This document shows positions 2,244 through 28,622 of a DNA stretch of 41,693 bases, piece by piece. Both the position numbers and the translations under genes were made by a program. Within the stretch, counting starts at the first letter, position 1. Each line of letters opens with the position of its first letter. Under the pieces are notes generated by a model that saw nothing but the letters and a program-made list of their open reading frames with translations, was not told where the DNA came from and made no database searches. Source of the stretch: a virus (lineage: Duplodnaviria; Caudoviricetes); IMG/VR virus record IMGVR_UViG_3300030372_003595, positions 1 to 41,693 of that record; one strand, given 5' to 3'.

Positions 2244-3005
2244 ATGAAAATAAAAGAAAGAGTGGTGGTGTTTCCAGACATCCACTTTCCGAATCACGAC
2301 GAAAAGGCGTTTAAATGTGCATTGAATGTTCTCAAGGAAATCAAACCAACTGCTTTTTTATTATTGGGAGACACTATTGATGGTGAATCCGTTTCGCATT
2401 GGCAATGGAGCAAGAGAAAGCGTCCACCGTTGGAGTATCAACTTCCATTCGTTGATGAAGAGATCAGGCAAGGGAATAAAGGACTTGATAGGATTGACAA
2501 GGTTCTTGAAGAGATCGGTTGCGATAAAAAACAATTTGCTCAAGGGAACCACGAAAAATGGTTCGACCACTTTGTCGATGAAAACCCCTACCTTGAACAT
2601 TACGGTTCCAGAAAAGCCTTCAAGTTTGACGAAAGAGGATATGAATGGCACGACTATGGTGAAGTCTTTAAAGTGTTCGGAAGCAAGTTATACGCTTACC
2701 ACGGAGGACACTATATGGGAATTGCCCATGCAAGAACTCACGCACTGCAAATGGGATGCAACATTATATACGGACACACCCATGATTGTCAAAAAGCCGT
2801 CATTACCCACATCTCCGGGCCACACATGGCGTATTCAATGGGATGCTTAACCGACATGAGCAAAGATTACTTAAAAGGAAGACCTACCAATTGGACTCAC
2901 AATGTGGGACTGGTAGATATATTTGATAATGGGAACTTCAATTTAATGGTCATGGATATTAATGATGGAGTAACTACCTATGGAGGAAAGATAATACGTG
3001 CCTAA
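2244..3005 (+). CDS. Calcineurin-like metallophosphoesterase
   Basis: All five motifs are present: DIH, GDxxD, GNHE, HG, GHTH. Confidence 0.9.
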   Translation: MKIKERVVVFPDIHFPNHDEKAFKCALNVLKEIKPTAFLLLGDTIDGESVSHWQWSKRKRPPLEYQLPFVDEEIRQGNKGLDRIDKVLEEIGCDKKQFAQGNHEKWFDHFVDENPYLEHYGSRKAFKFDERGYEWHDYGEVFKVFGSKLYAYHGGHYMGIAHARTHALQMGCNIIYGHTHDCQKAVITHISGPHMAYSMGCLTDMSKDYLKGRPTNWTHNVGLVDIFDNGNFNLMVMDINDGVTTYGGKIIRA

Positions 3006-6000
3006 ACAGCTTGAAGAGATCAATGTTTTCAGTTCCGGAACATACTATGCTCCAGACAAGAGAGATATCCCCAATAGTGCTGCCTCTTTCAGTAAGAATA
3101 TAGACCCATTATTAGACAATGGTGCTTTGAAAGGGATACCTGCAAATACAACTCATAAAACAGGTGTCGATTCTATAGGTATGTCAATAATCAATGATAG
3201 TGGAACTATTAGAGCTGTATATATGGATAGCGATGGAGATTTTTTTAAAATAGACGATTTGGAAGGAACACCTGGTACTCCGACCTTATTGGAGTCTGGT
3301 ACATACACATCAAGTCCGGCAATGGAAGTAAACAATAAAGAAGTTCATATTGGGCAAGGCACCTCCCTAGACGTCAAATGGTCTGGTATTGTAACCCATG
3401 GTCAGTTCGGAGGTTCTGTTCCTAGTGGTGTTCAGATAGAGAACGCTTCTCTTACCGCACCATCGTCATTCACGGATATGCATAAGGTTGTAACGGACGA
3501 TACATATATCTATGGTATAGAGTATAGTGGTCAATCACTATATAGGTTTAAAATATCAGACGGGACTATAGATAAGATTGGAAAACCTATTTTCAAGAAC
3601 CAAGCTGACCTAACTGCCCTTGCTCTTGCAAGTGATGGTGATCTATGGTTATTGGATTCAAAAACCTTTCATCAAGGCAATAATATCTTAGGGGTATTGT
3701 ATAAGGTCGATTCAACTACGCTTGAAGTGATACAGGAAAATAAACTAACACTTGCAAGTAGCACTGCTCCAAATAAATACACAGACCTACTAGAAATAGG
3801 TGCAGAGTTGTGGATATCTGCTGAAAAAACTTCAGCTGCTAATCCTGAAAAAGCTTATATAGCCAATGTTACGATACCAACCGCAGATGGAGATACAGAA
3901 GTTACAAATAGGTTTCCATTAATGAGGACTGTACACTCAGGGACACCACCTACTGGTAAGTTTGATACAGGATCAACAGACGATAATGCCACAATGACAA
4001 CTTTTATACCAAGGGTAAATCTTATAAAATTAAAGGACAGTACAGATCATTGTGGTTTTGCAATAGATATTAGAGATAGAGATGGCTCAGCTAGTCTTGC
4101 TAGATTTACAAAATCAACAGGCAATGTAGTTATAGTAAGTAGTTGCATATTGTCAATCCATAAAGGGTGTGATTCAACATCTGATACCTTAACAGGTGAC
4201 AATAAATTATTTTACTTTGCAGATAACACAGGTTCAATAAGTCAAAAACAGATATTTACAGATGGGACAATCAATAGAGGATATGTCGCAAGCGATGGAA
4301 CTAATTATATAGCCGTAGCTCAACCATCTAATTCCGATGCTTTAGATGACTCTTTTATATGGAGAGTGGCAATACCAGATATGGATACTGCTTCAAATGG
4401 AGATTTATTGCAGACCTATCAACTGTCTATAACCTCCAACATTACCAATTCAGCCATATGTACCGCAGATGGGGGCAGTAGTACAGTAGACTTCCATTTG
4501 TTCAGTAGTGGTGATTCTGTGGGTAGATGGTCAAAGCTAGATGATGTAGCTAGTTCTTTTTCTGATAAAACTGCAACCGTGATATTGCAATCAGATGCCA
4601 ACGTATCTTTATCATTGGCTTCATCTGGGGCTTCTTCATCTTTTACAGCAGAAAAGAATTATTTTTATAAGATATCCTATATGTATGATGGGTATCAAGA
4701 ATCTCCATTGAGTACGGATTTCATGATAACTCAAGGGGCTAGCTCAACTCAAGTTTCTATATCCATTGACCTATTCAATATCACATCTATGTCAAAAAGG
4801 ATAACTGGGGTCAATTTATACATGGCTGAGGGTGATACTAACTCAAGTGACCCCACTGGATTCTATCGATTGGCAAAGTCAATTGAAATAAACGACCAAT
4901 GGTTACAAGTCTCTGATGATGCAACATCTCCAGATTGGGGAGTGAAGAAATCTCATCAATTTATCCACAATGGAACAAGCCAAGGTAGTTATGAATCTCG
5001 AACTGGAATATCTGAGGCTCTAGATAATTTTACCCCAAAATACACTTTAAGCACGGTTTTGAATAATCAACTATTCGTGACTCAATGCAGTCACCCTGAA
5101 ATAGAAGATGCAAATCTATATATCTTTAAATCCAGACCTTATAATTACGACCAATTCAATTGGGTCTTTGATTTCATGGTACTTCCTGACATACCTACCG
5201 CTATCAAGGGGTTCAATGGAAGACTTTATGCATTTACAAAAAGTAAGATCTACAGAATAGAGCCAAATGGAATGTATATAGAAGATATCTTTGATGGCGC
5301 AGGATGTTTGAATAGTGAGTCTGTTATTGTAACAGATTATGGAATGTTCTTTGCGGATAACAATAATATATATTTTCACGATGGTAGAGTCCCTAAACCA
5401 ATTGCGGGACCTATTATTACACAACCAGAAGTAACAAATCCTGCAGGTACCGGTGATCCATACCCCATAGCAGTTTATACTGCATGGCAATTAAGACCAT
5501 CTCCTCAAAGAGATGTAGTATTGGGGTTTGATAATAAACGAAGAGCGTTACTTGTATTTTTTGATATACAGTATAATTTAGGCGGTAGCGATATAAATTC
5601 TAATTTCTGTTGGGCATACAGTATTGATTCAAATCGATGGGATTTATGGGATTCGGAAGCAGTTACTTCTTATGTATCTGGTACAAGCGGTGAGAATTTT
5701 ATATCAAATGGTACAAATCTTTATAATTATCTAGGACACGCTTCAACTAAAGTAGCTTGGCAATGGTATTCTAAAAAATTAGTTATGAATGCATCTACTG
5801 TAGATAAAAAATTTATCAAATTACATGAACAAAGTGATTCAGGTTCACCTGTAGTTACCGTTGCCTTTGACAGTGATCCAACTTCATATGGTGCCTTATC
5901 TGCAATAACCAAAGCAAAATGGGCTAGAATCAAAGTTGTTTCTAATGCAACAACAGATAGGTTAAATGCTCTTGGAATGCAATGGCGTGGACTAAGAGAA

Positions 6001-6021
6001 GTTCCGGTAACAGACCCCTAA
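2998..6021 (+). CDS. Large beta-rich virion tail protein (nozzle/stabilization-protein-like)
   Basis: 1007 aa, Ser/Thr/Gly/Asp-rich beta-structure with propeller-like segments. Sits directly before the ejection-protein genes, as podovirus nozzle genes do. Confidence 0.6.
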   Translation: MPKQLEEINVFSSGTYYAPDKRDIPNSAASFSKNIDPLLDNGALKGIPANTTHKTGVDSIGMSIINDSGTIRAVYMDSDGDFFKIDDLEGTPGTPTLLESGTYTSSPAMEVNNKEVHIGQGTSLDVKWSGIVTHGQFGGSVPSGVQIENASLTAPSSFTDMHKVVTDDTYIYGIEYSGQSLYRFKISDGTIDKIGKPIFKNQADLTALALASDGDLWLLDSKTFHQGNNILGVLYKVDSTTLEVIQENKLTLASSTAPNKYTDLLEIGAELWISAEKTSAANPEKAYIANVTIPTADGDTEVTNRFPLMRTVHSGTPPTGKFDTGSTDDNATMTTFIPRVNLIKLKDSTDHCGFAIDIRDRDGSASLARFTKSTGNVVIVSSCILSIHKGCDSTSDTLTGDNKLFYFADNTGSISQKQIFTDGTINRGYVASDGTNYIAVAQPSNSDALDDSFIWRVAIPDMDTASNGDLLQTYQLSITSNITNSAICTADGGSSTVDFHLFSSGDSVGRWSKLDDVASSFSDKTATVILQSDANVSLSLASSGASSSFTAEKNYFYKISYMYDGYQESPLSTDFMITQGASSTQVSISIDLFNITSMSKRITGVNLYMAEGDTNSSDPTGFYRLAKSIEINDQWLQVSDDATSPDWGVKKSHQFIHNGTSQGSYESRTGISEALDNFTPKYTLSTVLNNQLFVTQCSHPEIEDANLYIFKSRPYNYDQFNWVFDFMVLPDIPTAIKGFNGRLYAFTKSKIYRIEPNGMYIEDIFDGAGCLNSESVIVTDYGMFFADNNNIYFHDGRVPKPIAGPIITQPEVTNPAGTGDPYPIAVYTAWQLRPSPQRDVVLGFDNKRRALLVFFDIQYNLGGSDINSNFCWAYSIDSNRWDLWDSEAVTSYVSGTSGENFISNGTNLYNYLGHASTKVAWQWYSKKLVMNASTVDKKFIKLHEQSDSGSPVVTVAFDSDPTSYGALSAITKAKWARIKVVSNATTDRLNALGMQWRGLREVPVTDP

Positions 6022-6298: not shown

Positions 6299-7060
6299 AT
6301 GGCTTTACCATTAGCAGTTCCACTTGTATTGGGTGGATTAGGATTAGCAGGGAAATATCTAAACAGACCTAAAGATATAAATTACAATTTTAGATATGAC
6401 CCAGAACAAGTAATGGCAGGTAGTCATACCTATTCAGCAGATAAGAATTTTTTACAAACTGCAAAGACGATGCAAAATCAAGGTGTCAACTTTCTTTCTG
6501 GTCAATCAGATATGCAAAAAGGGCTCTTGGATGATGCATATAAATCCTCATTCGGCTTTGCGGATCAAATGAATACTCAAGCTATTGAGGCGATGTCACG
6601 TGCCGGTGTTGGAGGTGGCGGGCCTTCAAGGGCGTTTAGAGCTATAACACGTGCAGGCGCAGGTGAGCAGTATAGAAAAAGCGCATTAGGTATTGGTACT
6701 CAATTTGCAAATTTAGGAGCGGGGTTATTACAAGGGGCTTCAAGTGCATTTGGACAAATAGACCAAACTAGGTCGAATGTAGGTATGTTCAATGTTGGTC
6801 AACGAAATCAAGTTAATCTTTCAAACGCTCAAAGTAAAAATGATGCAAGGAGATTTGCAAAACAAATGGGATACCAACAAGCTGTAGGTAATGCAAATGC
6901 AAGATCCGCTTGGGGTGACTCAATGAGCAATAGTATGTTCGATCTTGCCGGACTAGCCTTTGGTGCCACTGATTATGGTGCGAGTGGTTATAATAATTGG
7001 GTAGGGCATTTCGATAGATATACTAATGATTTTTCAGGATTAAATAAGGAGTTACGATAA
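6299..7060 (+). CDS. Putative ejection / DNA pilot protein
   Basis: AAGGAG RBS. Hydrophobic Gly/Ala N-terminus (ALPLAVPLVLGGLGLAG) and a Gly/Ala/Gln/Asn-rich body typical of podovirus internal virion proteins. Confidence 0.65.
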   Translation: MALPLAVPLVLGGLGLAGKYLNRPKDINYNFRYDPEQVMAGSHTYSADKNFLQTAKTMQNQGVNFLSGQSDMQKGLLDDAYKSSFGFADQMNTQAIEAMSRAGVGGGGPSRAFRAITRAGAGEQYRKSALGIGTQFANLGAGLLQGASSAFGQIDQTRSNVGMFNVGQRNQVNLSNAQSKNDARRFAKQMGYQQAVGNANARSAWGDSMSNSMFDLAGLAFGATDYGASGYNNWVGHFDRYTNDFSGLNKELR

Positions 7061-8572
7061 ATGGCACAACGATGGACGGGATATACTTCAGGAACTGAAA
7101 GACTGGTTCAGCAAGTAGAGAGTCAAAAAAATAGAGTTCAGCAATTAGAAATGTTAGGCGCTCAATTGAAGATGCAAAAGAAAATAGCAGATGAGCGTAA
7201 TAAGACTACCCTTAAAGCGGCTGAAATTAGTCAAGAAACACAATTTGGTGTAACCGACAAAACACAAGCTGGTGCTAAAGAAAGAGTAGAAATAACAACT
7301 GGTTCACAGGAAAAACAGACAACTGAGAAAGAAGCCGGAGCTACCACAAGAACGCAGATGGGGATCACGTCTGCTGAAAAAATAAACACAGATAGAATTA
7401 CATCTGCTGAAAAAATAAATGATGCAAAAATATTAGCATCTAAAAATGAACTTGTGATGAGAGAGGCTGGTTTAGATTCTCGCTTATCAAGTGAATTGTC
7501 AAATAGGATAGATTTAAGAAATCTCACAGATACAGCAGCAATGGCTCGTCTTGAAAAAGAATTAGGTACAAGAGTAGACCTAGAGAAAATGAGACAAGAT
7601 GGTAGCTTAGATCGACTTGTTAGATCTTTAAAAAGTAATGAATCCATAGCTAGTTTAAGAGAGTCTGGCCAAATGGATAGGTTGGTCAAGAAATTATTGA
7701 GCGATAAAGAACTTGCGGGATTAGACAATGAACAAAGAATGGCAAGACTGCAAGAAAAGATAAGTGGCGATAAAGACTTAACTGCTTTCGTTCAAGGGGA
7801 AATGAATAGAAGGCAAGTTACTGGAGATAACGCAAGGCTTGAATTGACCCAATTTGTTCAGAGTGAGATAATGAAAAGAACAGGCATGGAATTGGATTCT
7901 AGGGAGACCATTCAGAGAATGATGGAAGGTGGAAAAGATTCTAGGCAACAGAAGGAATTTCTTTTTCAAGCAGGTACTCAATTAGCAGACATAAATGCAA
8001 AAATGGATAGGCAGATAGAAGGTCAAAAGCATAAAGAAGGAATGCAAGATAAGGCGTTTGAACAGACCAAGGAATTATCTAACATAAATTTTGAAAAAGA
8101 GGTATTGGGTAATTTATTAAAAATGAAAATGGGACAAACAGAACAGCAGAGAAACTTCAATTTTCTAGCTAGTCCGTTCAGTCTTGGTAAAACAAGCAAT
8201 GCTTTTGGAATGAATTATAAAGAATCTGATGTATTGAATGCGGTCAAAGGAAACCTACCGGCATTGAGTGAAGCTGTTAAGATAGCCAGGGAACTTCCAA
8301 AATCGACAGAGATCGAAGAAGGGGATTGGTATAACCCATGGAGTGAAGATAAAACTGTAACGAAACTTGACCCAAGGGCCGCTGCTTTGAGTGCGGTCTT
8401 GAAAAACTACGAGAAGGAACTCTCTGGTAGTCAATTTTATAATTGGGGAGAATCTTCAACTACCAAGAAACAAGCAAAGACCGCATTGGGTGACGTTCAG
8501 AGTTTGATACAAATGTTGGATATGCCTTCACAGAACGCTGATTTTGACAGCTTCTTACCTCAAGGATACTAA
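7061..8572 (+). CDS. Putative ejection protein with a long 11/22-residue periodic helical region
   Basis: AAGGAG RBS. Hendecad periodicity over about aa 45-330. Second of the three ejection-type genes. Confidence 0.65.
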   Translation: MAQRWTGYTSGTERLVQQVESQKNRVQQLEMLGAQLKMQKKIADERNKTTLKAAEISQETQFGVTDKTQAGAKERVEITTGSQEKQTTEKEAGATTRTQMGITSAEKINTDRITSAEKINDAKILASKNELVMREAGLDSRLSSELSNRIDLRNLTDTAAMARLEKELGTRVDLEKMRQDGSLDRLVRSLKSNESIASLRESGQMDRLVKKLLSDKELAGLDNEQRMARLQEKISGDKDLTAFVQGEMNRRQVTGDNARLELTQFVQSEIMKRTGMELDSRETIQRMMEGGKDSRQQKEFLFQAGTQLADINAKMDRQIEGQKHKEGMQDKAFEQTKELSNINFEKEVLGNLLKMKMGQTEQQRNFNFLASPFSLGKTSNAFGMNYKESDVLNAVKGNLPALSEAVKIARELPKSTEIEEGDWYNPWSEDKTVTKLDPRAAALSAVLKNYEKELSGSQFYNWGESSTTKKQAKTALGDVQSLIQMLDMPSQNADFDSFLPQGY

Positions 8573-8584: not shown

Positions 8585-11500
8585 ATGGATCCCTATCAGT
8601 TTCAACAATATGTAAACTCCTACAATAGTAACCCTTGGTTATTTGACGATGATACCGTTGATGAACTAGAACGTGTTTCCAAGGAACTCGATATTCCATT
8701 CAAGAGAAATATGGATGTTGAGGAGCAAAAACAAGGTGGAGAACTTTCTAGTTTAGTCAATCAATTCGCATCTGGCGCAGTTGAAGGTTTCTCTACTTTA
8801 GGTTGGTCAGATGACCCAGTGACCCCTAGTGAGCAGATAGCTCATAGTATGGGGCATTTAATTGGGTTTGTTCCGGGAATCATTGGCGCTCCTTTATTAA
8901 AAGGGACTATGCTTGCTAGTTCTAAATTAGGACTAGGTCTTGTTAAGGGTAGTATGGCTCGAAAGGTCTTAGACAAGACTGCCAATATAGGAGAATTCCT
9001 AGCCAAACAAAAATCTCTACCATTCCAAGCGGCTGAATTTGCTCAAGGGAAGTGGGTCACTCCCGGATTGGCAAAAGCTGGATATGACATAGCCAAGGCA
9101 ACAAAGGAAGGAAGTGTTGTTGCAGATATCGCAAGTAGTGGTATCAATCTAGGTCTAGCATCTGGAGTATCTGGGATTTGGGGTGGGCCTAGAGAAGTCA
9201 TAGAATCAACCATTCATGGTGCAGCCTTTGGTGGCGCATTTGGGGCAATTGGTAACTTTACCAATATGCGTAAACTATTAGGTCACTCTAATCCTAAAGT
9301 GGCTCAATCCGCAGACGATTGGTGGTTCAATAAGGTTGTAAAAGGTGGATTAGGTGCCGGATTGCAGGGTGGTCTCGCCTTTGCTCAAGATGCTCCTACG
9401 TCAGTTGTTATGTACGAAACTCTATTAGGTTCTTATTTTGGATATAAACATCCCAGTGCCAAGAGAAAACAAGCAATGCAGTATACAGATTCTTTTTCCA
9501 ATAAAGAAAATGATGTCTATGGTGATGTTAATGTAGGAAGATCTACGGAGATGTTAAAGACCAGTGAATACAATGCTTTGCATCCAGAAGCTCAGGAATA
9601 TGTAAAGAGGCATTTCAAATACAATATATCTGAAAAGTACGATAGAAAATTAAAGCAATTAGACCTATTCATTGAAGAACCAGATACTCCTACGGAAGCA
9701 TCTGTCTTTTTAAAGATGATGAAAGAAAGGCTTGTAAGCAACGTAGAGGCTGAAGAAGCTGCGATGAGGATGCGAAAAGGTGAGAATAGTGAGTTATCTG
9801 AAATGGAGAGCCTTGATGCAAAAGCCAAATCAATGGATAAGTTTGATAGGGATTATGAGCAATTTGAGGAATCTTCTCTTATCTATAAGGTAGCCAATGA
9901 GGTCATACCCGAGACAAAGGAAGGTGAGAAAATTGATAAGGATAAACCACTTGGTGAATTGAGTAAGGATGTGCAAGAAGTGGTTGACAATATGTCTGAG
10001 ACTCAATTGGAACGAGCAAGAGGCGGAGACATAGAAGCTATAATGGAAGTGGTCAAGGGTAATGTAGAGAACAATCCCAACCAAAGAGAGGGCATTGACT
10101 ACGTCACTGAAAGAATGGATAAGGATCAGTTAGAATTAGACACTCCTACTTCAATTCGTTATTTTCTGAGGGAAATAGAAAAATCAGTTCAAGGAGAAGA
10201 GTCTCCTATTGAGATACTGGATAACATACTTGGCGTATATAAAGATTCAGTCACTAAAAAAGACACATATGAGACCTTTATTGAAAAGGTGAAGGATAAA
10301 GCAGATAACTACGTACCAAGTACAGAGGTCGAGAATGGCCTAAAGCAACTATTCAATAGAGTTAGAAATGAAGAATTGAGACCTTATCTATTCTTTAATA
10401 AAGGTGGCTGGCTAGGTACTAGGGATGTATACAATGGTAAAGGTGATAGGGTTGCTGAAAATCAACCATCTCCGTCTGATGAGGTTCATTTTAAAAAGAC
10501 CGGAGACTTTTTTGACAATGTTAAAGTAGTGGAATTCAAGGAGTTCGATGCTTATGGCGGATTGCATAGACCTTATGATAAGCATTTTGGGCCATCGGGT
10601 GAGATGGAGAATGTTATGTATGGATATGACTGGCTTGAATTATCCAAATCCTTGGACAAGGGCAATAGATATCTAAAGATACCAAAGAAGGATAATGGGG
10701 TTGAAAGGGTCTATCCGTACCATAAGAGCGTTAAGAACCTTGAGGGGCTACAGTTGGATAAGACTTGGGATCACTACATGAAGGTATTTTCCAAGATAAC
10801 ATCAGCAGACCCTAACTCGAAGGGGTTCTCTGCTAGAGACCTTATAAATAAAGATGCTACTGAGTGGTTGAAATTTCATCAATTAGATAACGCTTCTCAA
10901 AAGGACCAGTCTAACGCACTTGCGATGTATAGAAAGGCGATGTTGTCTAATTTTCTATATGAACCAGGAGCGCAGTTTGCAAATGCTCAAAAAAGAGTTA
11001 AATATGAGAGTTTACTTGCTAGTAAGGGAATGCCTCAAAAGGATATCGCTAGATTCAAGGACATAGTTGGAGATGAAGGTGTATTGGAGTTCATACCTGT
11101 CATAGGCGAACCAGATGGAAAGGTTCATAAATCAAATGTGAAAGGTCAAAAGGAAGATAGGTACCTTCAACAAGAAGGTGCCATCATCAAAGATAAAATG
11201 TATGAAAGCGAGATCGATGGATACTTGACCTTACATAGTGACCTTTATAAAAGATTATTGGAAGCAAATGGATTTGGAAAGGATGTTTCAAGATTGAAGC
11301 CTTCCATAGCAGCTTGGATAGGAGACCAATTGTTTATTGTGAAAGGTGGAGTTCATCCGTCCCATCCTGAATACGATGCATCAATGGGAGCTAGCAATCG
11401 AGGTATCGTAATGACAAGTGCCGCCAAGATACTACCCAATGGTACAAAGTCATACTATGGTGAGGCCGTTGGTTATAAAAACAAGACCTATCAGTACCAT

Positions 11501-14500
11501 TTTAAAGATTCAAAGACAGGTAAAAGAGTAAAGAATCCAGAGACCGTCAAGATCAAATTAGAAGATCTACGTATTGATTATGGGGTTCGTGAAGATGCAC
11601 ACGCACTTGAAAGTCAGACCATTAAAAAACAGTTTCATGTACTGCTGAATAAACTACAGATACCAGAAAAGGCATTTAAGGATTTTATGTCTGCTGCATT
11701 CGATGAGGGAATCCAAGGTAATTCCATTGCCAATGCAGTTGTGAAGTCCATTGGTGAAAATTCAAAGATGCCAATTCCAAAGAATTTTAGAATATCTGAG
11801 ATAGGGGATGCTGAGTTCACTAAGATAATAAGTAGTCCAAAGAAATATCACTCTCTATATAAAGAATTATTGAAGGAAATGGTAGGTGAGACCAAGTATA
11901 GGGATCGTGCAGATTCCTTCGCTGAAGAGGACTTTTTAGTCGAGTTGGACACATATGTCAATGAACTGCAAAGATGGGCAAAATACAGTGATTTTGACCC
12001 TGTATCAGCACAAGCAAAGCCTGAATTGTACCAAGCGATGATCTTAAGATATAGAAAGAATAAATATATGTATCCAAAGTGGAAACATTCTGCATCTGGA
12101 TGGGTTGCCGGTGTTGACCCGATCAGTAAGGCCAAGTATGGAAAGATAGAAAAGAACACGTTCAAACTAGGTCACAGTTATAAAGGTAAGATGATAAAGG
12201 TTGGTGGGATTGAAAAGAGCTTGAGTGAAGTTTGGGAGCTTTATAAAAATCCTAAAACATCAGCTAGGGATAAAAAGATATATGCTGAGGCTCTTACTTG
12301 GGCAATAATGAGAGTTCCTTCCCCTGCGGTTGCAGGTACAAGAATATTGAATTTCAGAGGATTCATTGATAACGATCTAAAATTAGCAGATTATGGTGTA
12401 TATATGCATCAAAAAGACCATTTCTATATAGATGGTGCAGATGTAGATGGCGATAAGGTATTCATGTACCAAGGGTTGCCAAAAACATTTACCAAAGCAG
12501 TATTTGAGCAACGGAATGAGCTTTCTTATACAAAGAATGGCAAGCAAGTAATGTTTCCAAATAAGGATAAGAGTAAAAAAGTGACCGAAGAATTTGGAAG
12601 TGCCTTTCCAGATAGAAAGACAGAAGCCTTATTTAGTAGTAAGATAAGCCAATATACACCATTTGCTTTAAGGAAGGTCGGTATGTCCGCTTATGAGGGA
12701 AAAGAATCAATGGGAACCGTGGTCAATGCAAAGACCTTTTTGAATTACGTCACTGCTGATATCATTGACCCTAAAACCGGCAAGGGTATTAAAGCTTTAG
12801 ATATATTCACTAAGGATAAGAAAGATGGGACTATGTATCTAGAAACCAGTCTCAAGCATTTGAATGATGTAGTGAATGGTTATAGGAAATATGCAGTTGA
12901 GGCATCCAGTAGGACTGCTGATAGTTCAGAGTATTGGAATATGATAGACGCTAAGACCATGAGAGACCTCTTATTCAGTAAGGCTTTTTATGGAGCGCGT
13001 TTTGTGGATAAAGATGGTAAATCCCATGCTGTGGATTTCAATGATCTTAAGAATACGGAATATGGTGAATTGTATAATATAAATGAGAAATTGTTCGGTA
13101 AGAATTATTATGCGAATAAACCTTGGAGTATAGAAGAAGTTCAATTGGCAATGAGAAATGCTAAGAGTTCTCAGTTTAGAATGAATTCTCTATTCTATCT
13201 CGCCAATAAAATGGCTGATAATAACATACAACTCAAGTATGAGAAAGGAAGTGAGGGATGGCGAAGGCTTGTAAGGTCATTCAATGAGGCTGTGAATGGA
13301 AAGGATTCTACCATACTACCTTATATCAATAGGAAGAACCTTAAGATAACACCTTCTTATATGAAGACTGATTATGCTAGAGCGGAAGAAATGATGGAGG
13401 ACTTCTATGCAAAGCATTCTGAGTATTATTTCAATCAAGGAATCGATGTTGCTGGTTCAAACCAAAATAGATTAAGTGTTCGTCAATTGCGTATTCGTGG
13501 AATGGCTCAGGCAAATAAGAATGTAGAAAACCTCGATGCAAATCATTACAAACTATATCAAGATATGAGGAATGAGAATGTCATCAGACCTCACGACCCT
13601 CTAACAGAAAGTAAATTGGTATTTAACGATATGATGGATATGTATAGTGCTATGGTCGTATCTAAGAAAGGTGAAAAGCTCATAGAATCAATGAATGATG
13701 CAGGGAGAAGTGATCTAGCATATTCATTTTTACAGGATATTGCTCAAAAAGCAGTTAATGTCAAGTCAAAGTACAATCGCGCAAGAAAAAGCAATATACG
13801 AAAGAAAATCGGTTCCATTAAGACCTTGGCTCAAAGTGATAAGAATATAAAGGCAATAAAGGAAGACATAACCAAGAAGGCCAATTCGTTTGGCATAGAC
13901 TCCAAGATAGCTACAGATTATTTTTATAACTATATGCTTAGCTCATTGTATAATCAACCTAAGAGTAAACAAGCAACAGGTGGAATCATAGAAATTGAAT
14001 TATCAAAATTAATGTCAAAGGAAAACCCCACTGAAAGAGATGAGCAAAAGATAGGTTACTATCAAGGAATACTTTCCAATATGGGTAAATGGTACAATAA
14101 GACCAGTTTTCATAGATTCCCAATTGAGAGCAGAGAGGTTCCAGAGTCCGCTAAAAGAGAGTTTATGGGTGGGTTTGCAAAAGCTTGGAACTTAATGAGA
14201 GATAATGAACCTTATACGAAGATAGATAAGAGCATTGGTGAAAGATTGGTCGCAGAGAATATAGACCCGATTGATGCTGCGAAGCCTTCTGAGAAGAAAA
14301 TAGCATCCAAGTCCGAGATAGAGAGATTATATGACCCCATATTTGAGGGAACGACTGATAAAAAATTAGGCAACAATGTTCCTAAGGATATTCCAAATGT
14401 ATTGAAGGAATTAGAATCCGATTTTTCAAAACTACCTCCTGAGGCTACCTTATATATGGAGGATTTCTTCGGCGCATATCAGAATGAGAAACAAGTAATT

Positions 14501-17500
14501 GCCAGACCTATATCCGAATCAAATTGGGATGACATAAGGGGGTTTCAAAAATTTGTAAGGCAAATTCGCATTGAGGGTTCCGATTCTTCGAGAATGAAAA
14601 AGATCTATTATTATATGTTTCCAGAAAGGGTAGGCGAAAAGGCTCTTACTTTCGATATGAGTCAGACTTACAAGCATGAGATTCCCTATCTTCAAAAGAA
14701 TGGAAATATAGAAATGCTTGATGTGAGACTTCCATTTTCTACGATGAAATATCTTAGCACTACCTTTGGTCATATATATACAATGTCCAATATTGAAAAA
14801 GAGATCAATCAGGAAATGATTCAAAGAAGGTATGAATTAGCAGACCAGATCAAAGGAATGGATGGTGGAACTACTGAGTTTGCTAAATTGCATCGATTGG
14901 CAATTGCAAAGATGTTAAAAGAGAAAGGCTCTCAGTCAGGTAGCGATGATGCAAAGAGAGCAAAAAGAGTAATGTATGATAAAGTATGGGAAGAAAATTC
15001 TGCAGACTATGAGACTTTAAGAAAAAAGACATATAAAATAACTGAAGATGGAAAACTCGTTAATAAGACGGGTGATGAAGTGATGGATTGGATAGGAAAA
15101 AGCCACGGTGAATTTCTAGATAGTTTCTATTCAAAGTGGATATCTGCTGGATTTGATGAAAGCGGTTCTAGGCCCGTATGGGATAGGGTGGATGTAGATC
15201 ATAAATATGGAAAGATTGACGATCTATTTGAATATCTACCTAGTGGAAGATTGAATATTAATAGGATACGAAAGAAGTTATATGAAGTTGCAACACATGG
15301 TAAGAAAGACGAATTGTCAAACCTAATACAAAATACCATACTTTCTTCAGATGCTTTGTATCGCATACAATATGAGACAATGTTAGAAGGCAGAATAAGT
15401 GAGGCTAAGATATCAAAAGATAGTTTGAAGGCTAAAGCTTATAGGGAACGTGCTAGACGAAAATTCAAAGAACTACCCGATGGGGAACTGGAATGGAATC
15501 CAACTGCATTTAAACCCACTGGTTACGTTGGAACTAGGTTTGAACGTACTTCTGATTCATTTGAATATTGGCCACATACCGATCATATGGCTACAAGAAA
15601 AAGTAGAAGGGAGGTCAGGGAATACATTAGTAATGACCTATCTTCTTTAAGGGTGAAATTAGATAATTATACGAGAGATATCGAATCTGGCAATGATGTT
15701 AGAATAGAAGACTATGGTATCAAGCAGAAATTGGTAACAGTTCTTAAAGCAGATAAGGAACTCTATCTTGAAGGAAAATTAAGCAAGGAGGAGTTCATTG
15801 AAAGATTCGTTGCTCTTCAAGAACAAGATTATGAAGTATCTTTTGGAGCTAGGCAGAGCGATGACGGTGGCGCTAGTGAACACGCAATGAGATATCTTCT
15901 TGCCAATCACGCACAATCAGATTACTTAACAAAGGATATGGATGGCTTTAACTCTCGTCCCGGTTCTGGTAAGGCGAGAGGCGATGAACCAATGCCTGGC
16001 TTTAGTTTGGATTTTGAAGTATTGGAGAATTATTCAAATCAATGGATAGCTGGATTCCATAATAATCTTACAGCTTTGGTAGCTCACGATAGGATAAGTG
16101 ACTTCTCAAAAAGAAACCCTATCAAGAATAAAGATAATAATGAGGAATGGGAGAATTATATGAAGATGTACACTAGGGATGTACTAGGATTCCCAAGTGT
16201 ATTCAATTCCGATATGATAGGCTTGAATAAAAACCAAAGAAGACAAATTGAAAAAGAAGTTTCTGCAGTAGAAAAAGCAGAGAAGGAAGGTAATATTGTT
16301 TCCTCTGAAAGATTTCAAAGGTATAAAGAGCATAAGGAAACACTTAGAAAGGATAAACAAAGAAGAAAGATTCGCAAAACACCTTATTATTGGTTAAGCG
16401 ATGAGGTCGTAGGTAGGCAGTTGGAAAAACTTGCCAAGGTTTTAGGCGGTAAGGATACACCAAAACTTCCATCTTTTGAAGATAGTATCATTCCTAAGTT
16501 AAAGGAACTCCCAAAGACGGATAAAGCAAGGCAGTATGCTTTAAGAAAGGTTGCTCAAAATATAGGTGCGTTTGAAGCTAAGTGGTCTCTTATATCATTA
16601 CTATCTCACCCCAAGACCGCAATGGGTAATATAATGGGTGGTAGTATAAATACCATATCCAGTAATGGATTAAGGCATTTTGTAAATGCTAAAAGACCTG
16701 CATATCTATATTCAATATTTAAAGGTGCAAAATTAAAAAATGGCACTGAGATAACTCCAGATAACGTAATCCAATTCATGAATAGATTTGCTGAAGAATC
16801 AGGAGCATTGGAATCCTTTATTGTATCTGAGGCTCAGTTAGCACGTGGTTTCAGTGGTAAGAAAGTAAAGGGTTTTCTTTCTGAATTTGTTGAGGAACTC
16901 AAGAAAGACTATAATATGCCAGACCAATCCCTATATGATATTGGTAAGAAACACGGTATCGGTAAGGCTTTTATTGATGGCGGTGCTTGGTTCATGCGTA
17001 AATCAGAACGTATGCTTAGAAGAGATTCATTTATATCTCATTACCTCAGTGCAAGGGAGACCTTATCTCAAATAGCCCCTGACATAGCACACAATGACCC
17101 TTATTTAATCAGACACGCAGTAAAGGGAGTGGAAGCTACTCAGTTCTTATACCATTCAAGTGCAAGACCCGCATTTTCTAGAACATCTACAGGTAAGATA
17201 TTTACAAGATTCATGCCCTTTGCTTGGAATTCTATTAAGTTTAGAAGGCAAGCTTGGTCTAGAGCCAAGGTACACGGTTTTGATATCAATACACCTGCGG
17301 GTAAAAGATTGCAAAGACAAATGACTGCTGATATGATGGTCTTTGCATTAGGTCAAATATTCGTATCCTCTATTTTTGATTCAGCTATGCCTCCACCAAT
17401 GTCTTATATGCAAGATACTGCTGATTGGTTATTTGGAGATGAGAAGACAAGGGAAAGAGCGTTTTTCAATCAATGGCCTCATCCAGCACTTGCTCCACTA

Positions 17501-17761
17501 TCTGCAGTTACAGGCCCATCAATGAGATATGTACTCGGCCCTTTAAAGGCTCTTATAAATGATGATTGGGGAAACTTTGCAGATTATCATCTTTGGACTT
17601 GGGCTCCATTTGGTAGGATAGCTAGAAGTGCTGTTCGTACTTATGACGTACCTGAGATGTGGATGGAAGAACTTACTGGTATGCCAATACATAGACTGGC
17701 TCAAATGATGAAGAAATCCAGAAAGGAAAAAGAAGAACAGGAGTTGTTAGATGCCGCCTAG
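8585..17761 (+). CDS. Giant virion/ejection polyprotein containing a putative two-barrel (DPBB) DNA-dependent RNA polymerase
   Basis: 3058 aa with ordered motifs IDG (D878), LKP (K905), KG (K920), SAAK (K948), RVP (R1243) and GADVDGD (D1286/D1288/D1290). The Gly/Ala-rich N-terminus and helical C-terminus resemble large internal virion proteins. Confidence 0.8.
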   Translation: MDPYQFQQYVNSYNSNPWLFDDDTVDELERVSKELDIPFKRNMDVEEQKQGGELSSLVNQFASGAVEGFSTLGWSDDPVTPSEQIAHSMGHLIGFVPGIIGAPLLKGTMLASSKLGLGLVKGSMARKVLDKTANIGEFLAKQKSLPFQAAEFAQGKWVTPGLAKAGYDIAKATKEGSVVADIASSGINLGLASGVSGIWGGPREVIESTIHGAAFGGAFGAIGNFTNMRKLLGHSNPKVAQSADDWWFNKVVKGGLGAGLQGGLAFAQDAPTSVVMYETLLGSYFGYKHPSAKRKQAMQYTDSFSNKENDVYGDVNVGRSTEMLKTSEYNALHPEAQEYVKRHFKYNISEKYDRKLKQLDLFIEEPDTPTEASVFLKMMKERLVSNVEAEEAAMRMRKGENSELSEMESLDAKAKSMDKFDRDYEQFEESSLIYKVANEVIPETKEGEKIDKDKPLGELSKDVQEVVDNMSETQLERARGGDIEAIMEVVKGNVENNPNQREGIDYVTERMDKDQLELDTPTSIRYFLREIEKSVQGEESPIEILDNILGVYKDSVTKKDTYETFIEKVKDKADNYVPSTEVENGLKQLFNRVRNEELRPYLFFNKGGWLGTRDVYNGKGDRVAENQPSPSDEVHFKKTGDFFDNVKVVEFKEFDAYGGLHRPYDKHFGPSGEMENVMYGYDWLELSKSLDKGNRYLKIPKKDNGVERVYPYHKSVKNLEGLQLDKTWDHYMKVFSKITSADPNSKGFSARDLINKDATEWLKFHQLDNASQKDQSNALAMYRKAMLSNFLYEPGAQFANAQKRVKYESLLASKGMPQKDIARFKDIVGDEGVLEFIPVIGEPDGKVHKSNVKGQKEDRYLQQEGAIIKDKMYESEIDGYLTLHSDLYKRLLEANGFGKDVSRLKPSIAAWIGDQLFIVKGGVHPSHPEYDASMGASNRGIVMTSAAKILPNGTKSYYGEAVGYKNKTYQYHFKDSKTGKRVKNPETVKIKLEDLRIDYGVREDAHALESQTIKKQFHVLLNKLQIPEKAFKDFMSAAFDEGIQGNSIANAVVKSIGENSKMPIPKNFRISEIGDAEFTKIISSPKKYHSLYKELLKEMVGETKYRDRADSFAEEDFLVELDTYVNELQRWAKYSDFDPVSAQAKPELYQAMILRYRKNKYMYPKWKHSASGWVAGVDPISKAKYGKIEKNTFKLGHSYKGKMIKVGGIEKSLSEVWELYKNPKTSARDKKIYAEALTWAIMRVPSPAVAGTRILNFRGFIDNDLKLADYGVYMHQKDHFYIDGADVDGDKVFMYQGLPKTFTKAVFEQRNELSYTKNGKQVMFPNKDKSKKVTEEFGSAFPDRKTEALFSSKISQYTPFALRKVGMSAYEGKESMGTVVNAKTFLNYVTADIIDPKTGKGIKALDIFTKDKKDGTMYLETSLKHLNDVVNGYRKYAVEASSRTADSSEYWNMIDAKTMRDLLFSKAFYGARFVDKDGKSHAVDFNDLKNTEYGELYNINEKLFGKNYYANKPWSIEEVQLAMRNAKSSQFRMNSLFYLANKMADNNIQLKYEKGSEGWRRLVRSFNEAVNGKDSTILPYINRKNLKITPSYMKTDYARAEEMMEDFYAKHSEYYFNQGIDVAGSNQNRLSVRQLRIRGMAQANKNVENLDANHYKLYQDMRNENVIRPHDPLTESKLVFNDMMDMYSAMVVSKKGEKLIESMNDAGRSDLAYSFLQDIAQKAVNVKSKYNRARKSNIRKKIGSIKTLAQSDKNIKAIKEDITKKANSFGIDSKIATDYFYNYMLSSLYNQPKSKQATGGIIEIELSKLMSKENPTERDEQKIGYYQGILSNMGKWYNKTSFHRFPIESREVPESAKREFMGGFAKAWNLMRDNEPYTKIDKSIGERLVAENIDPIDAAKPSEKKIASKSEIERLYDPIFEGTTDKKLGNNVPKDIPNVLKELESDFSKLPPEATLYMEDFFGAYQNEKQVIARPISESNWDDIRGFQKFVRQIRIEGSDSSRMKKIYYYMFPERVGEKALTFDMSQTYKHEIPYLQKNGNIEMLDVRLPFSTMKYLSTTFGHIYTMSNIEKEINQEMIQRRYELADQIKGMDGGTTEFAKLHRLAIAKMLKEKGSQSGSDDAKRAKRVMYDKVWEENSADYETLRKKTYKITEDGKLVNKTGDEVMDWIGKSHGEFLDSFYSKWISAGFDESGSRPVWDRVDVDHKYGKIDDLFEYLPSGRLNINRIRKKLYEVATHGKKDELSNLIQNTILSSDALYRIQYETMLEGRISEAKISKDSLKAKAYRERARRKFKELPDGELEWNPTAFKPTGYVGTRFERTSDSFEYWPHTDHMATRKSRREVREYISNDLSSLRVKLDNYTRDIESGNDVRIEDYGIKQKLVTVLKADKELYLEGKLSKEEFIERFVALQEQDYEVSFGARQSDDGGASEHAMRYLLANHAQSDYLTKDMDGFNSRPGSGKARGDEPMPGFSLDFEVLENYSNQWIAGFHNNLTALVAHDRISDFSKRNPIKNKDNNEEWENYMKMYTRDVLGFPSVFNSDMIGLNKNQRRQIEKEVSAVEKAEKEGNIVSSERFQRYKEHKETLRKDKQRRKIRKTPYYWLSDEVVGRQLEKLAKVLGGKDTPKLPSFEDSIIPKLKELPKTDKARQYALRKVAQNIGAFEAKWSLISLLSHPKTAMGNIMGGSINTISSNGLRHFVNAKRPAYLYSIFKGAKLKNGTEITPDNVIQFMNRFAEESGALESFIVSEAQLARGFSGKKVKGFLSEFVEELKKDYNMPDQSLYDIGKKHGIGKAFIDGGAWFMRKSERMLRRDSFISHYLSARETLSQIAPDIAHNDPYLIRHAVKGVEATQFLYHSSARPAFSRTSTGKIFTRFMPFAWNSIKFRRQAWSRAKVHGFDINTPAGKRLQRQMTADMMVFALGQIFVSSIFDSAMPPPMSYMQDTADWLFGDEKTRERAFFNQWPHPALAPLSAVTGPSMRYVLGPLKALINDDWGNFADYHLWTWAPFGRIARSAVRTYDVPEMWMEELTGMPIHRLAQMMKKSRKEKEEQELLDAA

Positions 17762-18899
17762 ATTTAAAGGATTCAATGTAGAAGAACCATCATCCACTAG
17801 AGTAGACATACCAGTACCAGTAGGTGCAGACCCAAATAGGTTTGGTAATATAAGGGAGTATAAACCAAATTTTATTGATAGGGTAGGTAACTTAATTCCT
17901 GATACGGGTGTAGGTGGTGTATTAAAAGGATTGTATCGTGGTGTAGATGATGGGGTATTTGGTTTACTACCATCTGGTAATTATGAATCTTCGACACCTG
18001 AGACCAAGTTAGGTGAAAATATGGGGCATCTTGCTGATCCATTTGCAATACCTTTAGCTGGACTTAAAACTGCTAAATATGCAGTAAGTGGTGGCACACC
18101 TATTAGTAGGTTAATAGCAAACAGTATTAATCCAGAAACTTATAGTAATAAATGGCCTGAGTTAAAAAGAGTATTGACTAATCCTAAGGTTTTAAAAGAG
18201 GCGGTTATAGATGACATACCCCAATGGAAAAGCCCAGTTTATTATGACAGATTGGGGCAAAGAACGGGTTTGGATGACAGATTGTTTGCGTGGAGAAAAA
18301 AACTTGGTTTAGGTAAGCCTAATGAAAAATATAACCAAACTTTGAATATGGGTCAGTACAACGCAGCGCAAAGTGCAAAGAAAAAAATAAAATATTTACG
18401 TGAAAATCATCCACATTTAGATAGAAGTGCGTATCAAGAAATAGTAGATGATTATAATCAAAATAATCCTATAAATAGAATATGGAATAAATTTGGTAGC
18501 CATACAGAAGATGGTAAAAAATATTATCATTATAAAAATTCAGATGATTATTTTGAGGGAGTAACAGGTAGAGATGGCCATACATTATTTGGGTCTTATG
18601 GTAAAAAGCGAACCATGAAAGGAAGTAAAGAACTTGGTGGCGTATTAAAGGAAGATTATTATGATAATTGGGATTTTGCATTTAACAAACCTTTATCAAG
18701 TTATTTACCAAAAGTTACTTCGGATGTAGTTGTTATGGGATCACATTCATCAGTGCCTGTTTTTTTACAAAGAAGTCTTGCAGAGGCTTTATTAAAACCA
18801 TTAGAATTTAAAGGTACTGCTAAAAGGATATATAGAAAACCAAGCAAAGAACAAATTGAAGCTACTCAGACTATTAGGAATAATCCTTTACCATTTTGA
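17751..18899 (+). CDS. Hypothetical protein (possible additional ejected protein)
   Basis: 382-aa ORF with AGGAG RBS overlapping the end of the giant gene. No recognisable motif. Confidence 0.7.
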   Translation: MPPRFKGFNVEEPSSTRVDIPVPVGADPNRFGNIREYKPNFIDRVGNLIPDTGVGGVLKGLYRGVDDGVFGLLPSGNYESSTPETKLGENMGHLADPFAIPLAGLKTAKYAVSGGTPISRLIANSINPETYSNKWPELKRVLTNPKVLKEAVIDDIPQWKSPVYYDRLGQRTGLDDRLFAWRKKLGLGKPNEKYNQTLNMGQYNAAQSAKKKIKYLRENHPHLDRSAYQEIVDDYNQNNPINRIWNKFGSHTEDGKKYYHYKNSDDYFEGVTGRDGHTLFGSYGKKRTMKGSKELGGVLKEDYYDNWDFAFNKPLSSYLPKVTSDVVVMGSHSSVPVFLQRSLAEALLKPLEFKGTAKRIYRKPSKEQIEATQTIRNNPLPF

Positions 18900-19201: not shown

Positions 19202-20089
19202 ATGCTAAAAAAGAATCTGTATAAGAATCAATACGGTGATATTTATTACAAGAAAATGATAGAAGGCGAAGTGGTTCAGTTAAGTACACATACCAAAGAT
19301 GAACGAATTGCTAATAAATTACATTCCGCATTAGAATACCAAGCACTTAATAAACTGTATAGTCCAAAAAAGGATAATAAAAGGTTTCTTACATTCAAGA
19401 ACCTTCTTATTAAGTATTTAAGACAACCCCATCAATGGACAAAGGAAAGCCGTAAAATGACATCCGGTGCATTAACTCATTTTATTACTAAAGGAATTCC
19501 TGAAAACAAGAACGCTGCCATTATTGTAAAGGGTAGAGTAAACACTTGTATTAATTGGGGATTAAAGAATGGTATAACAACTGATGTAAAGAAGTTTGAA
19601 CAGATTGGAAGTTCTATTCCCAGGCACAGGGTTTTTAATGATGCTGAAATGAAATTAATTAAAGAAGAGGTGCAAGACCCAGACTTTAATCTTTTTGTTC
19701 AATTTGCATATTATACAGGAGCAAGGAGAGGAGAGTTAGTAGGTCTAAAAGCTTACGATTTTAAACCGTTACACTTTGAGGTGGATGGTAAGTCAGGTAA
19801 ACGACTTATTCGATTAAATAGGCAAGCTAGGTCTATACTTTCTATGAAAGAAGGGATCTGGGAGTATAGGGGAGACTATATATCTAAGAAGTTCAAAAAG
19901 AATCTAAGGAGACTGGAAATAAAGGATGGTAGGTTTCATGACCTAAGAAGGACATTTGGATTTAATTTAATAAGACAAGGTATGCCTATTTTTAAGGTAA
20001 GTAAACTATTAGGACATAGTTCTATTGTAACTACAGAAAGGCATTATGCTCCTTTGTTAGCTACGAATGTTGAAGACTTTGTTTTATAA
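19202..20089 (+). CDS. int: Tyrosine recombinase / phage integrase
   Basis: Catalytic motifs TGARRGE (R), GKSGK (K), HDLRR, LLGHS and TERHY (Y). Adjacent to the tRNA. Confidence 0.95.
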   Translation: MLKKNLYKNQYGDIYYKKMIEGEVVQLSTHTKDERIANKLHSALEYQALNKLYSPKKDNKRFLTFKNLLIKYLRQPHQWTKESRKMTSGALTHFITKGIPENKNAAIIVKGRVNTCINWGLKNGITTDVKKFEQIGSSIPRHRVFNDAEMKLIKEEVQDPDFNLFVQFAYYTGARRGELVGLKAYDFKPLHFEVDGKSGKRLIRLNRQARSILSMKEGIWEYRGDYISKKFKKNLRRLEIKDGRFHDLRRTFGFNLIRQGMPIFKVSKLLGHSSIVTTERHYAPLLATNVEDFVL

Positions 20090-20383
20090 ACAATTATTAC
20101 AAGTATTCGTATCACAAGGTAATCCTCCATACATACTTCTTTGTAAATAGAATTGAGCTTTCTTATGTATTTGCGTTAATCCATAAGACCAATATCTATC
20201 ACATTTAGTACATAGGTAAGGTGGATACTCAGAAGTTGATTTATTTCTCCAAGTATCCACTACCTTGTCTTTTTTTATTTCTTTTTTGTCAATCCATTCA
20301 TCTGCATCTTCACCGAAGTAATATTTTAAATCATCTATCCTATTTTTATTACTTATCTGTTCTTTCTGTTCTTTGGAAGCCAT
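20084..20383 (-). CDS. Hypothetical protein with CxxC...CxxC zinc-finger motif
   Basis: CTKC and CNNC pairs. GAGG RBS. Last gene of the leftward operon, convergent with int. Confidence 0.65.
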   Translation of the reverse strand: MASKEQKEQISNKNRIDDLKYYFGEDADEWIDKKEIKKDKVVDTWRNKSTSEYPPYLCTKCDRYWSYGLTQIHKKAQFYLQRSMYGGLPCDTNTCNNCL

Positions 20384-20416
20384 AGTATCCTCGCATACTG
20401 ACTTCCTTCACCCGTC

Positions 20417-20548
20417 CTAATTTTTTATTTTATTATATCCATCTATGACAAGAGTTGCAATCATCATAATTCCAAATAACCCTAACGTAGTCAATGTCAA
20501 TCCCATCCCAAATGCTATGAAATTCACTATCCATTCTGCTATGTCCAT
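20417..20548 (-). CDS. Small (43 aa) single-TM membrane protein, not in the ORF track
   Basis: MDIAEWIVNFIAFGMGLTLTTLGLFGIMMIATLVIDGYNKIKN fills a gap in the operon. Confidence 0.5.
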   Translation of the reverse strand: MDIAEWIVNFIAFGMGLTLTTLGLFGIMMIATLVIDGYNKIKN

Positions 20549-20553
20549 GAGTA

Positions 20554-20775
20554 TCACTTTCCCTCCAATGCTTTTTCTATTCTGTCTATGATTACATTTA
20601 AGTCATAATCATCTGGCTCGTAAAACTGTACGTTAGTGATATGAACTTTTAATTTTATTAAAGCACCTTTAAGTTTTTTAACTTGCTCATCTAGGTCATG
20701 TATATCTGCGGAAAGTCTTGAAACTTCCGATTTGTAATGTTCTTCAGGTACAACTGAATCGAACACTCTACCCAT
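20554..20775 (-). CDS. Hypothetical coiled-coil protein
   Basis: TAATG-coupled ORF in the leftward operon. Confidence 0.6.
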   Translation of the reverse strand: MGRVFDSVVPEEHYKSEVSRLSADIHDLDEQVKKLKGALIKLKVHITNVQFYEPDDYDLNVIIDRIEKALEGK

Positions 20776-21345: not shown

Positions 21346-21361
21346 TTTTTTCCTAAACGTC

Positions 21362-26618: not shown

Positions 26619-26698
26619 ATTTAATCCTTATTATGGAGAAGGGGAGTTAAGTCGGAGAAAAGCCACATACCATTATTAACTCAACCCCCCCAGATAAA

Positions 26699-28600: not shown

Positions 28601-28622
28601 ATAGCCTCCTTTGAAAGTAATC

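Follow-up and report, generated by a model that had tools for sequence, protein, structure and literature searches.

The 3058-amino-acid (aa) protein encoded at positions 8585-17761 of the phage record IMGVR_UViG_3300030372_003595 is, on the strength of a structural model, almost certain to carry the fold of a two-barrel RNA polymerase (RNAP) in its middle. We propose that it would act as a single-chain polymerase that is packaged in the virion, ejected together with two cysteine-free proteins, and used to transcribe the early genes from DNA, a reading to which we give a probability of roughly 0.8. The window analysed here is the whole record of 41,693 bases (87% complete by CheckV); features are collected in Table 1.

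Results

Motifs and predicted fold of the core

An initial annotation had noted six ordered motifs in this open reading frame (ORF), and all of them lie exactly where it placed them. SEIDG (aa 875-879, with D878 at nt 11216) is followed by the lysine motifs RLKP (K905), FIVKG (K920) and MTSAAK (K948), then by MRVP (R1243 at nt 12311; R1243-V-P1245 at nt 12311-12319) and DGADVDGD (nt 12431-12454), which holds the aspartate triad D1286, D1288 and D1290 (D1286-V-D-G-D1290, nt 12440-12454). When the 3058-aa protein was shuffled 20,000 times, DxDGD arose in 5.7% of cases, RxP-x(25-60)-DxDGD in 0.44%, and the complete ordered pattern, which was drawn up post hoc from the sequence, once; conservation of the motifs is the stronger test.

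An AlphaFold2 model of aa 640-1560, built on a 34-row alignment, reached a predicted local distance difference test score (pLDDT) of 86.7 and a predicted template modelling score (pTM) of 0.83. Foldseek against the PDB returned gp66 of phage phi14:2 first (E 1.1e-10, query TM-score (TMq) 0.46), with QDE-1 at 3e-8 and maize RDR2 at 1.2e-4; 16 chains fell at E <= 0.001, and all rows listed were RNA polymerases or transcription complexes. VIA-align favoured QDE-1 (Z 15.6, 549 aligned residues, root-mean-square deviation (rmsd) 5.7) and RDR2 (14.8), followed by P74-26 gp62 (11.3), and paired model residues 1-913 with QDE-1 528-1186, spanning both barrels. In a wide structure search of 48,161 chains, ranks 1-18 were all two-barrel RNAPs; gp66, at the eighth rank (Z 10.2), gave the longest alignment (662 residues, rmsd 4.7), and PolD matched weakly (Z 5.1, rank 43). 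Isolated double-psi beta-barrel (DPBB) structures aligned to model residues 529-658 (aa 1168-1297) with Z of 7.0-7.4 and rmsd of 2.4-2.5, and in BFVD viral models without a name came closest (best E 2e-31), with crAss-like proteins after them (from 3.6e-11). The confident model and the three structure comparisons agree on the single-chain two-barrel core that the initial annotation had suggested, with gp66 and QDE-1 among the best matches. The rankings disagree on which of these two is closer: gp66 comes first by Foldseek and QDE-1 stands higher by Z, and gp66 was absent among the best 50 rows of a second-look VIA-align run.

Two features of the two-barrel superfamily were found in the one chain, namely a catalytic DPBB with RxP and DxDxD (the DPBB alignment at aa 1168-1297; motifs in 119 of 119 distant homologs, see below) and a second DPBB with a conserved aspartate and lysines (the QDE-1 alignment; D878, K920, K948). 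As described for QDE-1 (PMC9508822), D1007, D1009 and D1011 form an essential triad that binds metal and D709 aids cation B; phosphates are held by K743 and K767, a preference for ribose comes from R962 and D1116, and the RxP arginine binds the 2'-OH. Motif order and context suggest that D878, K920, K948, R1243 and D1446 would take the corresponding roles, the first-barrel residues being equated by motif order with QDE-1 D709, R738, K743 and K767.

A large family with an invariant catalytic set

A word-index search with aa 800-1400 recovered 59 close homologs of 1743-3680 aa that resemble the 3058-aa protein along almost its full length. DxDGD is present in 58 of them and reads DVDAD in the 59th. 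Every named motif residue is invariant in all 57 rows of an alignment (A1) of the query and 56 of these proteins (P0001, P0046 and P0059 excluded), as are G1366, G1372, K1373, V1380 and K1383 of the putative bridge helix. Because the word-index search could favour motif-bearing proteins, a separate search was made with a profile of 34 core regions (A2) against 1.84 billion representatives, yielding 241 clusters (50% identity) at E <= 0.001 and 196 at 1e-10. The best 150 of the 241 provided 141 new proteins; 120 of these are at least 1500 aa long (median 2966 aa), and 119 cover the core columns. The matches extend over several hundred residues, and motif fragments alone therefore do not explain these distant homologs; the A2 profile itself includes the motifs, so some bias remains in the counts.

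Lack of conservation among homologs was one of the observations named beforehand as speaking against a polymerase, and the catalytic set is instead kept in 118-119 of the 119: K905, K920, R1243, P1245, D1286, D1288 and D1290 in all, and D878 and K948 in 118 each, with G879 in 111. D1446 is found in all 112 proteins that cover its column. Position 1289, the fourth of the triad motif, is not a family-wide glycine (G 55, I 37, S 16, A 11), and its states require 24 changes on a FastTree tree versus at least 48 with shuffled labels. The extra aspartate of 'DGAD' is particular to the sub-clade of the query, GG standing there in 112 of 119.

The giant protein had no match in Pfam or PHROGs, nor in PDB sequences by phmmer or the profiles A2, A3 and A4. 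A tblastn search of GenBank phages with the core, the C-terminus and two distant homologs was likewise negative, hence no cultured member is in that set; one sub-family alone accounts for 452 matching stretches in IMG/VR. We found no earlier description of the present family in the literature, although the family alignments of PMC10770324 may already include it; ten supplements of that study contain none of the family motifs, and its virus table is confined to genomes with two or more RNAPs.

The gene body is free of frameshifts in contigs of three other runs (coverage 30, 26 and 29 of 30 bins), two of them labelled marine or seawater metagenome; in frame, they differ only close to the stop, by a compensating pair of shifts (17754/17757). 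Together with the 59 full or near-full homologs, these contigs rule out an assembly artefact. Two short identical metatranscriptome contigs in the polymerase core (one run, word share 0.08) were not counted as expression. In one relative (L071, 8049-14478) the giant gene appears split into frames of 487 and 1616 aa; that contig has unknown bases, and the split may be an assembly error.

A cysteine-free ejection cassette

The plus-strand structural run reads endolysin, metallophosphoesterase, then the 1007-aa, 253-aa, 503-aa and, last, 3058-aa genes. Synteny and cysteine counts were taken from 34 of 73 loci, near-duplicates included. The small-medium-giant order after a gene of ~1000-1250 aa recurs wherever the contig reaches far enough, with one additional small gene in one sub-clade, which bears out that the giant gene is the third and largest of its cassette. 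The 3058-aa protein has no cysteine where ~29 are expected (Poisson 2e-13; the 46 other window ORFs have 85 in 8935 residues, 0.95%), and cysteine is likewise missing from 58 of the 59 close homologs and from 109 of the 120 distant ones. Across the loci, the giant gene (34 of 34), gene -1 (32 of 32) and gene -2 (30 of 30) are cysteine-free throughout, over 103,744, 12,234 and 7,051 residues, respectively; cysteine reaches 1.0% in gene -4 and 0.23% in gene +1. Three adjacent late genes, the largest last and all cysteine-free, are one mark of a podovirus ejection cassette. Cysteine suppression is reported to mark the three-gene ejection operon of 191 Schitoviridae and has been tied to passage through the periplasm (PMC11445570, PMC3715699), and the ejected crAss proteins gp65-67 are almost cysteine-free as well (1, 2 and 1). 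Because the three-gene block is cysteine-free and its synteny conserved, packaging and injection, for which the initial annotation had relied on gene position alone, gain independent support, and we consider it highly probable that the 3058-aa protein is packaged and ejected.

The 1007-aa gene had weak propeller-repeat matches only, in 4 and 3 of 19 relatives, and no match in PDB or GenBank; its identity as a tail nozzle was not borne out. The slot 3' of the giant gene is variable (350-620 aa, several unrelated families, or empty); its gene is cysteine-free in 22 of 31 loci and possibly encodes injected cargo. The metallophosphoesterase (2244-3005) is 81-90% identical among relatives whose giant proteins are 31-59% identical, which points to unusually strong constraint, given its place between the endolysin and the tail genes.

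Flanking and inserted domains

The giant protein's N-terminal domain may serve as a membrane anchor. The C-terminal domain resembles LPD38 and LPD39 by Atlas language-model features (0.95 and 0.93, a lead only), and LPD38 is described as confined to phage polyvalent proteins; the model of the C-terminal domain had low confidence (pLDDT 61.7) and drew no Foldseek match at E <= 0.001, and was thus uninformative, also on any likeness to ejection proteins such as T7 gp14/15/16 or N4 gp52/51/50. Among close homologs, the linkers near aa 520-640 and 1590-1700 differ in length and are sites of insertion. Of 15 giant-protein relatives scanned, four (P0119, P0026, P0110, P0155) carry inserts: NADAR, DUF7831, cpYpsA SLOG, helix-hairpin-helix (HhH) or restriction endonuclease (REase) domains. 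Such insertions fit an injected multi-domain protein.

Early block and non-coding elements

The minus-strand block at 20084-32598 is the likely target of the polymerase, and gp66 is reported to transcribe the oppositely oriented replication module of phi14:2. At the early/late divergence lies a conserved element (32703-32765) composed of a G run, a TATA-like core, CCCACAC-CATTCTA and a T run, ~400 bases before a 262-aa gene that is present in 28 of 29 genomes and, from its position, probably encodes the small terminase. Because of this neighbour, the element is no less likely to be a packaging site than a promoter. An AT-rich near-perfect palindrome (33045-33076) is found just upstream of the 262-aa gene, and a minus-strand hairpin (32122-32176), partly conserved in five relatives, after the first early gene. 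Sigma-70 words and terminators in the window stay at shuffle level (72 vs 72.3; 9 vs 9.0). Four sister-clade genomes contain a hairpin plus T-run motif on one strand, with 13 copies in L227 (G020 22539-27966), 7 in G019, 6 in L225 (G018 15486-22256) and 3 in G017, and none in the reversed control. Where their positions were checked, most copies cluster in the early region; in the two loci read, small early genes flank them. They recall the repeated terminators described in the pre-early region of P23-45; the window has 0 copies.

The phage and its relatives

Besides the integrase and the head module, Sak, primase-helicase and ParB-like genes were recognised in the window (Pfam/PHROGs). A tblastn search of GenBank phages with the capsid gave three matches only, 23-27% identical, in genomes of 43-44 kilobases (kb), none of them crAss-like. 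We examined 49 records of >40 kb with a family member: 46 contain a homolog of the window capsid (38 of the 39 records with a completeness of 90% or more), 47 measure 40-55 kb, and three with terminal repeats are 47,023, 47,090 and 41,504 bases long. An integrase is present in 13 of the 49, and a P22-like portal in 5 of 5 tested. Crassvirales are defined by crAss-type head proteins and a ~100-kb genome; with an SU10_MCP capsid, a P22_portal and a genome of ~47 kb, this phage is not crAss-like. The phi14:2 protein gp102, taken as capsid by gene-number offset, had no match in the window.

Capsid (38845-40158) and giant-protein identity are decoupled: in G013, G015, G016 and G012 the capsids are 85-89% and the giant proteins 32-34% identical, which suggests exchange of the ejection module. 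G014 (88,986 bases) has two capsid and two small-terminase-like genes and is probably two genomes joined in assembly, and L012 has a tandem pair of integrase genes (18500-20260) after the giant-gene block. Regarding the host, GTDB scans found no prophage (at least 600 pattern matches in one, 45 in the other), and integrase homologs led only to two uninformative metagenome-assembled genome labels. Shine-Dalgarno (SD)-like words precede 24 of 39 window starts versus a 13% background, which weakly argues against a Bacteroidota host; to our knowledge, SD use is lacking in Bacteroidota.

Table 1. Coordinates of the giant gene, its parts and other features of the window
Feature	Positions	Strand	Basis or remark
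1007-aa gene 5' of the cassette; possible tail nozzle (weak)	2998..6021	+	weak propeller-repeat matches
253-aa gene, hydrophobic N-terminus, no Cys; likely outer-membrane ejection protein	6299..7060	+	no family match (Pfam, PHROGs)
503-aa gene, no Cys; likely periplasmic tunnel protein	7061..8572	+	no family match (Pfam, PHROGs)
3058-aa giant gene; predicted two-barrel RNAP core between Gly-rich helical N- and conserved helical C-terminal domains	8585..17761	+	no Cys
N-terminal domain, aa 1-520, Gly/Ala-rich	8585..10144	+	hydrophobic segments aa 87-113, 177-196; no PDB sequence match
Modelled polymerase core, aa 640-1560	10502..13264	+	pLDDT 86.7, pTM 0.83; matches gp66, QDE-1, RDR2, P74-26 gp62
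First beta-rich barrel region, ~aa 833-1003, with D878, K905, K920, K948	11081..11593	+	bounds from model strands
Predicted catalytic double-psi barrel, aa 1168-1297, with RxP and DxDGD	12086..12475	+	isolated DPBB structures align there
Long helix aa 1359-1393, likely bridge helix	12659..12763	+	DSSP H at model residues 720-754
Likely trigger-loop helix: aa 1433-1446, helix plus loop, last residue D1446	12881..12922	+	D1446 conservation; suggested counterpart QDE-1 D1116
C-terminal all-helical domain, aa 2260-3050, best conserved part	15362..17734	+	LPD38/LPD39-like by language-model features
382-aa gene 3' of the giant gene, varies among relatives	17751..18899	+	no Cys in the window
Tyrosine integrase	19202..20089	+	PF00589 2e-15, phrog_1 7e-28
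Mostly minus-strand block: small ORFs, primase-helicase, Sak, DUF932, ParB-like	20084..32598	-	likely early genes
Single-copy conserved non-coding ~60-base element at the early/late divergence	32703..32765	.	20/20 regions (window and 19 relatives)
Head module: terminase large subunit (phrog_38), P22-like portal, 303-aa gene, SU10-type major capsid protein	34160..40158	+	

Discussion

We infer both DNA dependence and a virion location for the giant protein, and the following course of events appears plausible. The position of the gene suggests that the protein is made late, with the structural genes. By analogy to N4/DEV and T7, packaging would come next; on ejection the chain would be threaded through a short tail and would cross the host envelope by a channel built from the 253-aa and 503-aa proteins. 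Once refolded, the predicted core would bind Mg2+ through D1286, D1288 and D1290, select ribonucleotides through R1243-P1245 and hold phosphates through K920 and K948, if the roles known from QDE-1 apply. As in phi14:2, the minus-strand replication block could thereby be copied into RNA without the host enzyme.

Several observations weigh against this proposal. The superpositions are loose overall (TMq 0.46 at best), and QDE-1, which also copies RNA, outscores gp66 by Z. The sequence link to gp66 is not significant (no hit by hmmsearch; hhalign E 0.029, probability 1.7%), the best hhalign stretch placing R1243 and the aspartate triad on gp66 R1322 and D1361-D1365; crAss RNAPs are extremely divergent among themselves, so that a comparison with one of them does not decide the matter. 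Cysteine scarcity is not limited to ejected proteins, as the portal has 1 in 724 residues and the 303-aa head gene 0. The flanking domains of the giant protein match no solved ejection protein, and a repeated promoter motif was not found in the early block of the window, nor a convincing repeat family in 18800-34200.

The high scores of RNA-copying enzymes raise the question of whether the injected protein mainly performs RNA-templated, primer or PolD-like DNA synthesis. QDE-1 and RDR2 have the top Z-scores, the nearest named Atlas cluster to the core is the RNA-dependent RNA polymerase (RdRP) PF05183 (0.82, a lead only), and the 28 proteins scanned from this 87% complete record included none that was recognised as a DNA polymerase. 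Yet the PolD match is weak, the ribose-selecting RxP arginine is invariant in distant homologs, the phage encodes its own primase-helicase, and the tested phage relatives gp66, gp96 and gp64 are reported to be DNA-dependent RNAPs; we regard such a reaction as quite unlikely. That the barrels are a dead relic with a purely structural function in the ejection channel is hardly credible, since seven catalytic-site residues are the same in all 119 proteins, which otherwise fall into separate clusters at 50% identity.

More weight, if still little, can be given to an injected polyprotein that is cleaved into a free polymerase and channel or cargo pieces. For fused crAss polyproteins, such cleavage was put forward by Drobysheva et al., and the two variable linkers with their insertions are in keeping with it; on the other hand, P23-45 gp96 is reported to be full length in virions, and the HExxH protease motif is absent from the giant protein and its four neighbours and rare in homologs (3 of 59 close, 7 of 120 distant). 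The polymerase might also be expressed and act in the infected cell without ever being injected. The non-virion enzymes P74-26 gp62 and P23-45 gp64 match the model (Z 11.3 and 11.2), and SPbeta YonO is another two-barrel enzyme that we take to be non-virion. However, gp62 and gp64 have ~590 residues as solved, whereas the core studied here is part of a cysteine-free chain of 3 kaa (thousand aa) and sits behind two cysteine-free genes in a structural operon, which makes this option very improbable. We therefore retain the packaged and ejected, DNA-transcribing polymerase as the preferred reading.

Virion-packaged two-barrel RNAPs have been reported previously in phi14:2 gp66 and P23-45 gp96. 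Similar to gp66 of the crAss-like Cellulophaga phage phi14:2 (PDB 6VR4; 10.1101/2020.03.07.982082), the 3058-aa protein has two predicted DPBBs in one chain, very little cysteine (2 in 2180 for gp66) and replication genes opposite in strand to the structural genes; the RxP-to-DxDxD gap is 39 residues in gp66 and most distant homologs and 43 here. In contrast, gp66 has 2180 aa, its gene is flanked by two further giant genes and the phi14:2 genome measures 100 kb; the 3058-aa chain brings N- and C-terminal domains of its own, and its genome of ~47 kb encodes a P22-type portal, an SU10-type capsid and an integrase. All crAss-like RNAPs are stated to have Ile or Val at motif position 4; the window has DVDGD, and the DxDID form of gp66 is shared by 37 of 119 distant homologs. 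The overall layout resembles N4/DEV gp50/gp71 (PMC11445570, PMC13434306), described as proteins of ~3000-3500 aa with N-terminal, polymerase and C-terminal domains, encoded last and largest of three cysteine-free genes. The N4 polymerase is T7-like, however, and the present one two-barrel by model, which sets it apart from the virion RNAP (vRNAP) fold of Schitoviridae; the giant protein also lacks the zincin HExxH, its genome is ~47 kb versus ~75 kb, and a second phage RNAP was not recognised.

QDE-1 and RDR2 (PDB 7Y7S, 2J7N, 7W82), the matches of highest Z, share the order DG, KG, SxxK, RxP, DxDGD and trigger-loop Asp. They are cellular enzymes without the phage flanking domains, only 9-12% identical, and 195 residues separate the counterparts of K948 and R1243, compared with 295 here. 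Thermus phage P23-45 (PMC10770324) likewise has a two-barrel RNAP in a giant virion protein (Z 9.9 for gp96, 11.2 for gp64); the gp96 polymerase is described as lacking a clamp and as forming the N-terminal part of a 5002-aa tape measure, in a phage with a long tail, whereas our core is central in the chain of a probably short-tailed phage. Phage polyvalent proteins (PMC5512222) are also giant late-gene products with inserted domains; the main text of that survey, in which 'DPBB' and 'barrel' occur 0 times, gives N4-like RNAP modules only. Most likely, the 3058-aa protein works like gp66 and is laid out like the N4/DEV vRNAP, and it belongs to neither group, differing from crAss in motif and head genes and from N4 in fold. 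What is new here is the protein family and the kind of phage.

In the literature, giant virion RNAPs count as a hallmark of the crAss-like phages (PMC10136315), and genome entry in small podoviruses is described as dependent on the host polymerase (PMC11445570). The present family, of at least 241 clusters, is separate: it belongs to marine phages of 40-55 kb, some of them integrase-bearing, and puts a two-barrel enzyme where the ejection protein stands. Given its hundreds of unannotated relatives, this suggests that the strategy of injecting a two-barrel polymerase extends well beyond crAss-like phages, and that the giant ejection protein is a chassis loaded independently with unrelated polymerases. 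A bolder and rather doubtful idea is that this marine lineage, integrase-bearing members included, built an N4-style ejection motor around a two-barrel polymerase, whose intact 3-kaa chain would be anchored in the inner membrane and pull the ~47-kb genome in by transcribing from 32703-32765, with a core as close to the eukaryotic RNA-interference polymerases as gp66 is. The family provides natural G/I/S/A variants at the motif position that has been linked to self-inhibition in gp66, and the giant gene can serve as a marker for an unnamed phage group. It also adds a deep and diverse branch to the question of where the RNA-interference polymerases of eukaryotes originated.

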